Assembly (NCBI RefSeq): GCF_039944555.1
Contig: NZ_JBDUYN010000009.1
Span: 128,404 to 192,403 of the forward strand
Direction of reading: 5' to 3'
DNA: 64,000 nucleotides
From: Reichenbachiella sp.
Lineage (GTDB): Bacteria; Bacteroidota; Bacteroidia; Cytophagales; Cyclobacteriaceae
Notes under the pieces: generated by a model
Databases searched by the model: none
Seen by the model: only the letters and a program-made list of their open reading frames with translations
Told to the model about the DNA's origin: nothing
Made by a program: the position numbers and the translations under genes
Part shown: in pieces, positions 59,501 through 63,221 of the stretch
How positions within the stretch are numbered: the stretch's first letter is position 1
Layout of the letters: every line of letters starts with the position of its first letter

Positions 59501-62500
59501 TACTTATTCAAACCAATCAAACAACAACCCTACCTATCCCCAAGAAGACCTGTTAGAAGGCACTCAATTGGTGATCGACACCCATGATGCCAGCACCAAC
59601 AATACCTACTTGTGGGAAAAACGCAATGCCAGCGGTACGACATGGACAGATATAACGGCTCAAAACGAACATGTGACTGGGGATAAATATGTGAAAGTGA
59701 TCACAGCTACCGAATCAGTAATCTACCGCTATACCATTACCAATGGTGTTGTAAATCAGACAAAGGTTTCAAACGAAATGAAAATTATTACGATCAATCC
59801 CAAACAAGTTTTCTTAAACCAATGGACCTTCCAATACAAATACGATCAGCGTCAGCGCATGACTGAAAAACAAGTGCCAGGAGCTGGAGTAGTATACATG
59901 GTCTATGACAACAGAGACCGATTGGTACTGACCCAAGATGCTAACCAGCGAGAACCTTCGACAGGCTCAGGGCGAGAATGGATCTTCACCAAGTACGATG
60001 TACTGAATCGTCCGGTGATGACAGGAATCTATATTCACACCTCATCAGTGGATCAGGTGCAAATGCAGGCTTATGTCAACAATGAGTTGGCCACAGGAAA
60101 CGCTTTATGGTATGAATCAAGTGGGAATATTCACGGATACAATAATGCTTCATTTCCGAGCGCAACCAACGAATCAAACTACCTGACCGTCACCTACTAC
60201 GACAACTACGACTTTAAAAACAATTGGCCAGCCGTCTACAACTATGATTTCACTCAACTCACCTGCCAAACTACCAATGACACCTACTGCTTTGAAAATA
60301 CCGAATCCCTGAGAGTCAAAGGCCAAGTGACAGGCAGCAAAGTGAAGAACTTAGATGACAACACCTGGCTGAACAGCGTGAGCTACTACGACGATCGTTA
60401 TAGAGTTACTCAAACGATCACGGCCGACCAAAAAGGAGGCTTTGACCGAGCGAGTAATTTGTATGACTTTGTGGGCAAAGTGTTGCAATCCAAAACAGTA
60501 CACGATAATGGTACCCAGACTTATGATATCCTTAGAACGTTTGACTATGACCACGCTGGTCGATTGTTGAGTGTTGCTCACCAAATTAACAGCGACCCAG
60601 CAGTGACTATACTGGCCAACGAATACAACGAATTGGGCGAACTCATCACCAAGAAGCTCAACAAAGAGGGCAATGATGAATTCAGTCAGGAAATCAACTA
60701 TCAATACAATATCCGAGGCTGGCTGACCCATATCAACGATCCGGCGGTAGCTGATGCCACCAAATACTTTGCCATGGCACTCAATTATACAGATGCAGCT
60801 AACCCACAGTATAATGGAAACATAGGAGCTACCCGTTGGAAAAACCCATTCGAAGGAAATTCCAATCGTTATGACTACACCTATGATCCACTGAACAGGC
60901 TGAAATCTGCTGCCTATACCCATGGAGAAACGAATGGCATGGACTATGATGTATCCAACATAGACTATGATGCCAATGGTAACATTTTGGCCCTGGAAAG
61001 AACAGGTGATCAGATCGTGACCGCTGGGGCTAATATTCCGGCACAGGTTATAGATGACCTAAGCTACGAGTATAGCGGGAATCAACTGACCAAAGTCACC
61101 GATGTCTCAGGCCTTGACATGGGATTTAAAGACGGAGCCAATACCAATGAAGAATACCGCTATGATGCCAATGGCAATATGATCAGCGACGCCAACAAGG
61201 GCATTGCTAATATCGAATACAATCACTTGAACCTACCGAGTAAGGTGACTAAAGAGGATGGTCAATACATCAAGTATATCTATGATGCAGCGGGGATCAA
61301 ACTCACACAAGAAGTCTATGATGGCACCAGCCCTGATCCTACGAAGGTAACCAATTATACAGGAGAGTTTATCTATGAGAACGATACCCTTCAGATCATT
61401 CAACATGAAGAAGGAAGGATTGTGGCTGTTCCAGAAGTTCCCGGACCTCCCGAACCTGTTCAGGGACTGGGATCTGGAACTCAAACTTTTGATTACCAAT
61501 ACCATCTGAAAGATCACTTGGGCAATGTGAGAGCTACATTTAAGACAGAAAGTGATGTAGAGTCCTCAGAAGCCACCTTTGAATCGGCAGTGGCAGCCAA
61601 TGAAACGAGTTACTTCTCAGGTTATGATGGCATGCGAAAGATTACCGCCGATCTGTTCAACAATACGCCTGGGGGAAATACCAGCATACGACTAAATGGT
61701 TCAGCCACAGAAAGAGAAGGTTTGGGCAAGTCGCTGATGGTGAAGCCAGGAGATCAAATAGATATGGAAGTCTATGCCAAGTACTATGATCCTGCCGATG
61801 TATCAGGCTGGACCAATGTAGTGAATACAGCCGTGGTCAACTCGATTTTGGCCAATGCCACCGGAGTGGTCACTCCTGATGCAGGAGGCATAGGCGAAGC
61901 AGCGTTTCCATTTGCAGACTGGACTGGCAAAGACAACCCAACTGGAGCTCCCAAAGCCTACCTGAATTATATGGTTTTTGATAACAATTTCAAACTGATA
62001 GCCGATCAATCAGGCTTTAAGCAGATATCATCAGCGGCGAAAGAAAACGGCTCTGATGTAGATCATGAGCACTTGAGTCATTCGATCACTATTCAACAAG
62101 CGGGATATATCTATGTGTATTTATCCAATGAACAGGATGCAACCGCCTCATACGATGTGTTCTTTGACGATTTTAGCGTGGTGCAGCATCACACACCAAT
62201 TGTGCAGAAGGATGATTATTATCCTTTTGGGCTGACTTTTAATAACGGGTATAAACGAGCGGCTGGTAAGAAAAATGGTTTCTTGTATAATGGGAAGGAG
62301 TTACAAGATGAATTGGATTTAGGGTGGATGGATTATGGAGCACGGATGTATATGCCTGAGATTGGAAGGTGGAATAGCGTTGACAAGAAAGTTGATGCTT
62401 ATGCGTCATTTAGTCCATATAATTATGTACTTGGCAATCCTATTGCTAATACAGACATAAATGGTGAATGGACTGTAACAAGACATCACAATATGACTTT

Positions 62501-63221
62501 AAATGCACTATCTCTTGCAGGAATTGGCGGGAAACAAGCAGAAATGATAGCTCATTATACTTCAGTCTACGCTGACAATCCAGGAAAACATTTGCAAATT
62601 AACAATATGGTTCACCCTCTTAATCAGTTGAGTTATAAGGACAATGAGGGATATCTCTATTCTGAAACTGCAAATTCTCAGGTAACGGCTTGGAGAGGTA
62701 AAGGATATAACTATAATGTATGGCACTCAATGAGGTCACCTTGGGAGAAGAAACAATACAATGCACGAAAAGGAGGTATATCTGCTCAAGGTGCGATGAC
62801 AAGGGGTATGAGGGCTGGCTGGAATAAAGTTTTTGAATCAGCAAGTAGAGGTAAACTAAGTGAGCTTAAAAAAAATAGCGTTGGTATACAACAATTTGGT
62901 CAAGGGGTGCATGCTTTACAAGATGCCTATGCTCATGAGGGTATATCAATTGAAGAACATGAACTTTTTGATTCAAAAACCATCAATGATAGAACAGGTG
63001 ATACTAGTCAAGCAGTAGAAATCAGCACATCTGCAGTGATGGTTCACAGTATTATAAGTGGCGATTCGGATACCTTTAACAATATGCTTAAAAAAGGAAA
63101 TAACTCACTTGATTTAAAAGGCATTTCGGGAGGTAATCTGATGCGGTTGAATAGTGAAATTAGAAAAAATGGCGGGAAAATGCAGTTCAATTGGGATACA
63201 GGAAAATATGATATTAATTAA
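56595..63221 (+). CDS. Secreted Rhs toxin: 4 beta-sandwich repeats, LRR array, C-terminal Rhs core and PLC/P1-like toxin tip (component B2)
   Basis: True start ATG 56595 (MRNLYILSLVVSLLAIGKNSKAQ); DVWFKF..GTFTLCV x4; LxxLxxLxxLxLxxNxLxGxIP LRRs; FQYKYDQRQRM, YDPLNRLKSA, HLKDHLGNVR, DYYPFGL, YNGKELQDE, DYGARMY, PIANTDING. Confidence 0.9.
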   Translation: MRNLYILSLVVSLLAIGKNSKAQSPSNDEKINAQELTQKNNWCSASGAYTTTAATGSLSGTCDGSIYKDVWFKFQAQTPFIDIGLTMVGLRYGTIVLQDAGGVEVGCKAGSSSGIVEYIGEALTVGDWYYVSIGSGRSSNSYNGTFTLCVNDQAPFDYKVGAVELTNLNSWCSTTNEYTTVGATGSSTMSCDGSNYDDVWFKFQAQTEFIAIDLTQGTIDYSRLALQDSQGNEIGCASSNYGYGTTISIVEESLVIGEWYYISVGDRSSASIYNGTFTLCVNDQIPFDYKAGAIELTNLNNWCSDTNAYTNVGATGSSIISCDGSNYDDVWFKFQAQTEFIAIDLTQGTIDYSRLVLQDSQGNEVGCASSNYSSGITISIVEESLIIGEWYYISVGDRSSATIYNGTFTLCVNDQAPFDYKVGAVELTSLNNWCSGTNEYSTENATGTLSASCDASMYNDVWFKFTAQSTDVDISMTPGTLGNAKLVLQDVQGSEIACKEAGNLSIVSTNLSIGAVYYLAVASNYSSGSDRGTFSLCIDNQNGDTPDYLEISALKDLYESTNGATDWTDKSGWPTSEAEWNTITNVNQTTGWKGVSVVAEDITGIDLPGNNLTGTLPTAIGDLKKLQYIYMNDNAIAGSIPASIGNLKALLYLILNGNSLDDQLPDELGDLESLKSLYLHDNLFSGTLPTTLGNLSNLQLLYIRGGTISGIIPSSFTNLTALRLLFIANCDIGGELPAFLGDLSELYYIYIGQTNVVGSIPDHWQNLNKLQHLYLFSNPGVTGNVPDWLGNLSGMVTIHLGNNSMIGSIPESLTNLSDLRYLYLHKNQLTGKIPENIGNLTNLVNLYLSDNQLTGNIPTSLGNASKLQYLYVQNNQLTGALPTSLSNLTSLKNFHAYGNNLTEDIGVDFNMMPSLVSMYLYDNKFSSIPNLSTHTNAANLNFKIENNNIPYADIENNLTGTNTHNFKTFTYSNQSNNNPTYPQEDLLEGTQLVIDTHDASTNNTYLWEKRNASGTTWTDITAQNEHVTGDKYVKVITATESVIYRYTITNGVVNQTKVSNEMKIITINPKQVFLNQWTFQYKYDQRQRMTEKQVPGAGVVYMVYDNRDRLVLTQDANQREPSTGSGREWIFTKYDVLNRPVMTGIYIHTSSVDQVQMQAYVNNELATGNALWYESSGNIHGYNNASFPSATNESNYLTVTYYDNYDFKNNWPAVYNYDFTQLTCQTTNDTYCFENTESLRVKGQVTGSKVKNLDDNTWLNSVSYYDDRYRVTQTITADQKGGFDRASNLYDFVGKVLQSKTVHDNGTQTYDILRTFDYDHAGRLLSVAHQINSDPAVTILANEYNELGELITKKLNKEGNDEFSQEINYQYNIRGWLTHINDPAVADATKYFAMALNYTDAANPQYNGNIGATRWKNPFEGNSNRYDYTYDPLNRLKSAAYTHGETNGMDYDVSNIDYDANGNILALERTGDQIVTAGANIPAQVIDDLSYEYSGNQLTKVTDVSGLDMGFKDGANTNEEYRYDANGNMISDANKGIANIEYNHLNLPSKVTKEDGQYIKYIYDAAGIKLTQEVYDGTSPDPTKVTNYTGEFIYENDTLQIIQHEEGRIVAVPEVPGPPEPVQGLGSGTQTFDYQYHLKDHLGNVRATFKTESDVESSEATFESAVAANETSYFSGYDGMRKITADLFNNTPGGNTSIRLNGSATEREGLGKSLMVKPGDQIDMEVYAKYYDPADVSGWTNVVNTAVVNSILANATGVVTPDAGGIGEAAFPFADWTGKDNPTGAPKAYLNYMVFDNNFKLIADQSGFKQISSAAKENGSDVDHEHLSHSITIQQAGYIYVYLSNEQDATASYDVFFDDFSVVQHHTPIVQKDDYYPFGLTFNNGYKRAAGKKNGFLYNGKELQDELDLGWMDYGARMYMPEIGRWNSVDKKVDAYASFSPYNYVLGNPIANTDINGEWTVTRHHNMTLNALSLAGIGGKQAEMIAHYTSVYADNPGKHLQINNMVHPLNQLSYKDNEGYLYSETANSQVTAWRGKGYNYNVWHSMRSPWEKKQYNARKGGISAQGAMTRGMRAGWNKVFESASRGKLSELKKNSVGIQQFGQGVHALQDAYAHEGISIEEHELFDSKTINDRTGDTSQAVEISTSAVMVHSIISGDSDTFNNMLKKGNNSLDLKGISGGNLMRLNSEIRKNGGKMQFNWDTGKYDIN
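56680..58215 (+). repeat. Four tandem Cys-containing beta-sandwich repeats (~120-131 aa)
   Basis: AAYGGTACTTTCAC recurs at 57021, 57414 and 57807 (393 bp period); units 2 and 3 are nearly identical. Confidence 0.88.
58420..59460 (+). repeat. Leucine-rich repeat array (24 aa, plant-receptor-like consensus)
   Basis: More than ten units such as IGNLTNLVNLYLSDNQLTGNIPTS, preceded by the cap ALKDLYESTNG..W; boundaries approximate. Confidence 0.88.

Follow-up and report, generated by a model that had tools for sequence, protein, structure and literature searches.

A Rhs Toxin Gene and Its C-Terminal Tip

The DNA considered here (the window) is a stretch of 64,000 nucleotides from Reichenbachiella sp. 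(assembly GCF_039944555.1, contig NZ_JBDUYN010000009.1, positions 128,404-192,403, forward strand), which carries a gene for a Rhs polymorphic toxin (Table 1). Its open reading frame (ORF) has the repeats, the associated core, the PxxxxDxxG motif and the two Asp residues about 22-24 positions apart by which Rhs polymorphic toxins are recognized, and it finishes with a tip of 250 residues that is the subject of this study. This anatomy is read directly from the translation: the core end is PIANTDING-E|W, the Pro at its start being encoded from window position 62439, and the stop codon finishes at 63221. A preliminary description of the locus had given the same core end, with the Trp codon at 62469-62471 as the first of a 250-residue tip, and its coordinates are exact by translation. 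All of the residues it had listed as candidate metal ligands (W1, H6, D36, H86, H148-x3-D152-x3-H156, and H164-x3-D168, counted from the Trp) are likewise present. From the comparisons presented below we favor, at somewhat better than an even chance, the reading that the tip is a metal-dependent phosphoesterase toxin of the phospholipase C (PLC)/S1-P1 nuclease/Het-C/DUF6765 kind that would be completed at its N-terminus by the cut of the Rhs core.

Table 1. Features of the Rhs toxin gene and of the region that follows it, in window coordinates. P1 is the residue before the predicted scissile bond.
Feature	Position	Strand	Basis or remark
Rhs polymorphic-toxin gene	56454..63221	+	ORF of 2255 residues; Pfam RHS_repeat and LRR families; NCBIfam Rhs_assc_core
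Four tandem repeats of ~115 residues each (approximate bounds, residues ~85-600)	56706..58253	+	Read from the translation
Leucine-rich repeat (LRR) region (residues ~640-1000)	58371..59453	+	Pfam LRR_14, LRR_8, LRR_1, LRR_4, E 1e-20 to 1e-30
RHS/YD-repeat shell (approximate bounds)	59691..62216	+	Pfam RHS_repeat (PF05593), E 9.2e-11
Rhs-associated core with aspartyl autoprotease, residues 1922-2005	62217..62468	+	TIGR03696, 51.6 bits against a cut-off of 32.5
Candidate catalytic Asp of SVD	62382-62384	+	24 residues from the Asp of TDING
Candidate catalytic Asp of TDING	62454-62456	+	24 residues from the Asp of SVD
Gly of the core end	62463-62465	+
Predicted P1 residue, Glu	62466-62468	+
Toxin tip, 250 residues, Trp (62469-62471) first	62469..63218	+	Translation, family conservation, AlphaFold2 model, DUF6765 homology
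Candidate ligand codons, N-terminal half of tip	H6 62484-62486; D36 62574-62576; H86 62724-62726	+
Candidate ligand codons, helix motif	H148 62910-62912; D152 62922-62924; H156 62934-62936	+
Candidate ligand codons, last part	H164 62958-62960; D168 62970-62972; D174 62988-62990	+
Gap where relatives carry a membrane immunity gene	63222..63411	.	190 bp; ORFs of at least 20 residues listed
TIG-Kelch lipoprotein, 489 residues, runs off the window	63412..64000 (L009 2816-4285)	+	Lipobox LLSC; Pfam TIG/Kelch

Predicted Site of Autoproteolysis

The position of the cut was deduced from characterized relatives of the core. In RhsA of P. protegens, whose catalytic Asp pair is D1324 and D1346, the density stops after W1350, which is D1346+4 (PMC8765631), and in the Bacillus teneurin-like protein BiTLP, with the pair D2116 and D2140, it stops after L2144 (PMC13018210). 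A profile of the core region aligned to the core ends of TccC3, TccC2, YenC2, and RhsA in the PDB, and in that alignment the PDB chains of TccC3, TccC2, and YenC2 finish one residue after the Gly. The rule adopted in the preliminary description, cleavage one residue after this Gly, agrees with W1350 of RhsA, L2144 of BiTLP, and the TccC/YenC2 chain ends. Because the densities of RhsA and BiTLP both stop at the fourth residue past the catalytic Asp, we place the cut at Asp+4, by which rule Glu2005 would be the P1 residue and Trp2006 the new N-terminus, and by this analogy we infer cleavage after Glu2005 with Trp2006 becoming residue 1 of the toxin. Both core Asp residues are nearly invariant among the relatives.

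An Unannotated Toxin Family

The tip was searched for in 1.84 billion representative proteins by a full HMMER scan, which returned 135 hits, and further members came from word-indexed searches and from scanning one genome per species. Judged from these sequences, it belongs to an unannotated toxin family found mostly in Bacteroidota; the named genomes that carry it are almost all from this phylum and include Chryseobacterium, Flavobacterium, Pedobacter, Chitinophagaceae, and others. The tip was not found in 15 congeneric species or in 15 further relatives, and of the 14 Rhs core ends in its own genome one carries it, a patchy distribution that is as expected of a mobile polymorphic-toxin cassette. 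One phage tape-measure-like protein (P0120, 1999 residues, Pfam TMP_3) has nine separate stretches that match tip residues 128-166, and these matches are probably a repeat artefact.

In an alignment of 80 family members, Q71, H148, D152, and H156 are invariant, and H6, D36, H86, and D174 are each kept in at least 90% of the sequences. A His equivalent to H164 occurs in nearly all members, within a loop of variable length. D168 lies within an insertion of five residues peculiar to the window, and the conserved acid is instead the Asp of an "ND" motif, D174 (90%). At the level of the family the pattern goes well beyond chance. Conservation upholds eight of the nine candidate ligands originally listed and replaces D168 by D174, and the ligand order H, D, H, HxxxD, H, H...D/E is present in full in the tip.

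An Invariant Junction Between Core and Tip

Among 203 non-redundant junctions between core and tip, 192 read [DEN]xxG-x|X-x4-H, where the bar marks the predicted cut. No insertion or deletion was observed from the Gly to His6 in any of the 192, despite divergence of the sequences to 25-30% identity and many indels elsewhere. Residue 1 is Trp in 81, Tyr in 68, Phe in 40, Ala in two, and Ser in one, and is therefore aromatic in 189. We attribute the aromatic residue to the toxin and not to the core, since Bacteroidota Rhs proteins with unrelated tips have Met, Lys, Arg, Asp, or Glu one position after the Gly (G+1) and no aromatic bias at the next position (G+2). When mutual information with residue 1 was calculated, its strongest non-local partner was the Arg/Met of the WHSM[R/M]S motif beside H86, to which we give little weight because the signal follows the W, Y, and F clades.

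The same distance from residue 1 to the first His recurs in proteins that have no Rhs core. Four of the five standalone homologs of the tip start M-[A/P]-T-[I/V]-S-x-H; the initiator Met is removed before Ala or Pro by established rules of N-terminal processing, so their mature chains are again expected to read X1-x4-H6. All of the 26 Bacteroidota S1-P1 nucleases considered read signal peptide|W-G-x-x-G-H. Bacteroidota hits above the cut-off for the zinc-dependent PLC family (Pfam Zn_dep_PLPC, PF00882) fall into subfamilies; some read signal peptide|WGFxxH, |YSLLTH, or |WKPTTH and others read MPFTFSH or MASGITH, in which expected excision of the Met puts the His at position 6. Of 120 DUF6765 proteins, 103 start M-[Q/E/K]-x-D-M-H, and because a Met that precedes Gln, Glu, or Lys should be retained, their His too would stand at position 6. 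The first His is thus encoded at position 6 where the initiator Met should remain and at position 7 where it should be removed, and because this shift is hard to explain otherwise it argues for a function of the free N-terminus. The spacing holds in families whose N-termini arise by three different routes. In S1 nuclease, mature residue 1 (Trp21) coordinates the zinc cluster through its main chain (PMC5201275).

Two further occurrences of the spacing were noted. Another Bacteroidota genome encodes a Rhs protein (L099, G140:C50) with a DUF6765-like tip that starts DPTGN|YGEAGH, which is a second, independent Rhs fusion with X1-x4-H6. The genome of the window itself encodes an ordinary secreted S1-P1 nuclease (G000 C12:57953-58654) with the mature start WGKTGH.

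Homology and Predicted Fold

When the 80 family members were compared with Pfam models by hmmscan, 36 matched DUF6765 (at E<1, best E 2.4e-6), 11 matched VWA7_N, and three matched Het-C. Alignment of the family with DUF6765 by hhalign gave a probability of 85% (E 5.9e-6) in the same N-terminal register, pairing residue 3 with residue 3, H6 with H6, D36 with D35, H86 with H79, and H148xxxDxxxH with H127xxxDxxxH. By these profile comparisons the tip is a homolog of DUF6765 that lies outside the boundary of that family. The matches to Het-C, a likeness put forward in the preliminary description, are weak, as are those to VWA7_N. With DUF6765, Het-C (PF07217), and VWA7_N the tip shares an all-alpha character, a His6 on the N-terminal helix, an acid near position 35, a His near position 80, an HxxxDxxxH helix, and a later His...Asp. 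It differs from them in being of a family that is fused to Rhs cores in Bacteroidota and has its own C-terminal alpha/beta extension and membrane immunity family. Zhang et al. (2012) described the motif of Tox-HET-C as "H, [DE], HxD, HxxxDxxxH, Nxx[DE]", predicted for it, with borderline significance, a fold and an active site in common with zinc PLC and S1-P1 nuclease, and listed it with carriers of the type II secretion system (T2SS), type VI secretion system (T6SS), and Photorhabdus virulence cassette (PVC) kinds, not with Rhs or Bacteroidetes.

The conserved residues of S1-P1 nucleases are W1, H6, D42, H57, H109, D113, H119, H143, and D147, and the tip series W1, H6, D36, H86, H148, D152, H156, H164, and D174 matches them in order and residue type. 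Besides this ligand order and a mature W1-x4-H6, the tip and the S1-P1 nucleases (PF02265) have in common a "WH" motif and an HxxxD motif, and in the solved S1-P1 enzymes zinc is bound by the N-terminal main chain. Their differences are that the tip has HxxxDxxxH where S1-P1 has HxxxDx5H, that they show no significant profile or Foldseek match to one another, that the N-terminus of the tip is predicted to come from Rhs autoproteolysis and theirs comes from signal peptidase, and that the immunity proteins of the tip family point to a membrane target. In zinc PLC the free N-terminal residue is part of the metal site. What the tip would share with the zinc PLC enzymes is such a free N-terminal residue (predicted for the tip), a His/Asp cluster, and X1-x4-H6; a membrane-lipid substrate would fit the immunity data. 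No direct sequence or structural match between the two was obtained. The HxxxDxxxH spacing of the tip is found in two of the three PLC subfamilies examined, all above the Pfam PLC cut-off.

An AlphaFold2 model of the tip built with the 80 sequences is confident (predicted local distance difference test, pLDDT, 95.4; predicted template modeling score, pTM, 0.93) and all-alpha with a small C-terminal hairpin. Residues 1-10 have a mean pLDDT of 94, and we read this part of the model as ordered rather than a loose tail. A model made from the single sequence was rejected for its pLDDT of 37. Phmmer and profile searches of PDB sequences returned matches to the Rhs core only.

A Family of Putative Membrane Immunity Proteins

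At most of the related loci the start of another ORF lies only a few bases from the toxin stop codon, and at least 27 of these downstream ORFs form one family, whose members have about 63 residues with two transmembrane (TM) helices or about 135 residues with four. The ORFs that abut toxin stops (L010-L064 and L100) represent this 2-TM/4-TM family, which is unannotated. In its members the first helix is followed by a conserved S-[G/S]-H-x-[I/V]-P-x-x-T loop, for which the Lys/Arg-rich ends of the chain predict an outward orientation. We presume from their position and conservation that they are the immunity proteins of the tip family. The most similar toxin that could be checked, P0005 (65% identical), has a member of the family as its downstream neighbor, and a few distant loci have lipoproteins in place of the 2-TM/4-TM proteins. 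Because immunity appears to sit on the periplasmic side of the membrane, the substrate is more plausibly a lipid or lipid-linked phosphate than the nucleic acids of a cytoplasmic nuclease. That the invariant His of the immunity loop plugs the metal site of the toxin is speculation on our part.

Proposed Activation by Cleavage and Its Alternatives

In the mechanism we propose, the Rhs aspartyl autoprotease would cut after Glu2005, four residues past the catalytic Asp of TDING, so that the toxin would begin with Trp2006. Through its free alpha-amino group and its carbonyl, this residue would then, together with His6, bind one metal ion, as in S1/P1 nuclease and zinc PLC, and the other metal ions would be bound by D36, H86, H148, D152, H156, H164, and D174 (or D168). 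The active enzyme would fold only after the cut, and a linker-free fusion to the Rhs core would be required. Its substrate would be a phospholipid or other lipid-linked phosphate at the outer (periplasmic) face of the target's cytoplasmic membrane, and the toxins of the relatives would be neutralized by the small membrane protein that presents its conserved Ser-Gly-His loop on that face. The sequences show the anatomy of the gene, the conservation of the family, the invariance of the junction, the DUF6765 homology, and the family of immunity genes; from them we infer where the cut falls, that the new N-terminus binds metal, that three metal ions are held, and that the substrate is a lipid. Comparison provides strong evidence that the N-terminus is functional and that the ligand set is PLC/P1-like, and chemistry in which cleavage activates the enzyme is likely. 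The wider generalization, that Rhs autoproteolysis is here an enzyme maturation that makes a metal ligand, that carriers must expose the native residue 1, and that a hairpin immunity protein may plug the site via its His, is one to which we would give slightly less than an even chance.

The preliminary description had gone on to suggest that a toxin left incomplete until cleavage has built-in self-protection, a suggestion we consider weak. Characterized Rhs cores cleave in the producer as they fold, with the cargo kept inside the shell, so the cut would not be delayed until delivery, and in the relatives protection comes from a membrane protein dedicated to immunity. More simply, a PLC/P1-type domain would need its native N-terminus as a constraint inherited with the fold, and Rhs autoproteolysis happens to provide one when the fusion has no linker; this seems a better account than a safety device. 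By analogy only, the scheme resembles that of the N-terminal nucleophile (Ntn) hydrolases and the pyruvoyl enzymes, in which self-cleavage also makes an N-terminus that joins the active site. In the toxin, however, the protease is a separate carrier domain, the N-terminus is proposed to be a metal ligand and not a nucleophile or cofactor, and there is no homology.

Several observations weigh against this interpretation. The window tip scores 18.3 bits against DUF6765 (PF20551), below the Pfam cut-off of 26.6 bits, and neither it nor any of the 80 members matched PF00882 or PF02265 by hmmscan. Foldseek with the confident model found no match to PLC, P1, or S1 in the PDB (best E 0.49) and none that was significant in BFVD. 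Alignment of the tip by hhalign with S1-P1 and three PLC subfamilies was not significant, whether global or local (probability ≤0.3%); this is not evidence of non-homology, because accepted PLC pairs used as controls failed too, the membrane PLC subfamily (65-72 bits on the Pfam model) going equally unmatched to S1-P1 (1.3%) and to the WGF subfamily (0.2%). Het-C domains are internal in some VgrG fusions, one member of the tip family (P0044) follows a non-Rhs N-terminal domain, and another (P0090) is without helix 1. The P1 residue in the tip family is Lys, Arg, Glu, Gln, Asp, Asn, or Met, and not the Trp, Leu, or Phe of characterized Rhs proteins. At the locus itself there is no ORF of the immunity family among those of at least 20 residues in the 190-bp gap after the toxin gene, and hmmsearch with the family models did not find the immunity family in the whole 6.2-Mb genome (best E 0.13); the strain may avoid self-harm by encapsulation, by lack of the substrate, or through a non-homologous protector. 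The resemblance to PLC and P1 nuclease that was first noted at this locus survives in the ligand order and the X1-x4-H6 spacing and finds no counterpart in a Foldseek or significant profile match. The case for membership of the PLC/P1 fold is accordingly built on motif architecture and a chain of weak homologies and not on a direct structural match, and the interpretation first offered for this locus is partly supported.

Some of these observations would be expected if the tip were a His/Asp metal hydrolase of the DUF6765/Het-C type in which the N-terminus is not a ligand, the zero-length junction resulting from cassette exchange or from the fit of helix 1 in the cocoon or its exit from it. 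Rhs tips recombine inside the conserved core end, so junctions are inherited, and the internal Het-C domains and the non-Rhs context of P0044 are in line with this account; the AlphaFold2 model and Foldseek, moreover, gave no structural proof that residue 1 is near the cluster. Inheritance, however, does not explain why the spacing from residue 1 to the His is identical in standalone homologs, DUF6765, PLC hits, and S1-P1, and the movement of the first His between positions 6 and 7 with expected Met removal and the complete lack of junction indels in so diverged a set also speak against this account, which we regard as unlikely. Activity as an S1/P1-like nuclease that degrades nucleic acids in the cytoplasm of the target is less probable again. 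In its W1-x4-H6 start and its "WH" motif the tip comes nearest to S1-P1 nucleases, and Zhang et al. (2012) left nuclease and phospholipase activity both open for Het-C, but the tip has no significant profile match to S1-P1, and tiny integral membrane proteins or lipoproteins with a loop predicted to be periplasmic would be unexpected as inhibitors of a cytoplasmic nuclease. There is also the matter of the cut itself, which could be shifted because the P1 residue of the tip family differs from that of the characterized proteins, in which Trp, Leu, or Phe immediately precedes the scissile bond (PMC8765631). Were the autoprotease to cut elsewhere, for instance after the aromatic residue, which in the tip family comes one position later with a hydrophilic residue at G+1, the aromatic residue would take the part of the usual Trp, Leu, or Phe at P1, and the toxin would begin with Thr2007, leaving the Trp on the cocoon. 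We judge this the least probable of the three, as Asp+4 holds in two structures despite their differing P1 residues, the Bacteroidota Rhs proteins with other tips share the M/K/R/D/E preference at G+1 and have no aromatic at G+2, and the X1-H6 spacing of all the related families fits Trp as residue 1.

If activation by cleavage is correct, this would be the first case known to us of a Rhs/TcC autoprotease that completes the active site of its cargo, beyond releasing it; a limited literature search found no paper on the tip family or on a metal ligand generated by Rhs cleavage. It would also explain the strict rule of zero linker and aromatic first residue in about 190 diverged toxins, and would connect the uncharacterized DUF6765 family with the PLC/P1 metal site, and Het-C and VWA7_N with it less strongly, the hallmark of the link being a mature residue 1 that stands five residues before the first His. 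The analysis in any case defines an unannotated, mostly Bacteroidota toxin family and the membrane immunity family that accompanies it; the tip would be a polymorphic toxin resembling PLC and Het-C, with a maturation logic and an immunity family that are both new.

Other Features of the Toxin Gene and Its Neighbors

The toxin resembles the Rhs/TcC/teneurin-like cocoon toxins (RhsA, TccC3, YenC2, BiTLP) in its YD-repeat shell, its Rhs-associated core bearing a pair of catalytic Asp residues, the PxxxxDxxG motif, and a polymorphic toxin at the C-terminus freed by autoproteolysis, the last being predicted here from sequence. Unlike them, it carries a Sec signal at its N-terminus with tandem repeats and LRRs in place of a PAAR or VgrG module, its P1 residue is hydrophilic, its first catalytic helix would follow the cut without a linker, and it has no adjacent immunity gene. 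A second repeat model, YD_repeat_2x, matches the shell more weakly (E 0.0081, 16.6 bits against a cut-off of 15.8). The true start of the ORF is probably Met48 at 56595, the first residue of the signal peptide MRNLYILSLVVSLLAIGKNSKAQ, because the first 47 codons (56454-56594) overlap the preceding gene and Met48 opens a typical signal peptide. Each of the four tandem repeats that follow has a conserved Cys and the pattern "DVWFKFQAQ...GTFTLCVNDQ", and a Pfam scan of the toxin ORF reported no family for them; LRRs of the plant type come next. For a Rhs protein with this adhesin-like front end and a Sec signal there is no obvious secretion system.

Downstream of the gap, the TIG-Kelch lipoprotein is a possible accessory or alternative immunity protein. 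It was rejected as a conserved partner of the toxin, as it is unlike any ORF downstream of the related toxins, and 30 related genomes yielded no full-length ortholog, only partial matches to its Kelch repeats. Upstream of the toxin gene are two large ORFs (window 49216-56566, + strand) that overlap each other, the second of which also overlaps the annotated start of the toxin ORF. The first (1066 residues) has an RHS repeat at its end and the second (1403 residues) has a PKD-like match and DUF6443, and with the toxin ORF the pair could make up a Rhs system that is split or has several parts. A TPR-CHAT protein of 904 residues is encoded at window 44991-47705 (+ strand), a few kb upstream of this cluster.

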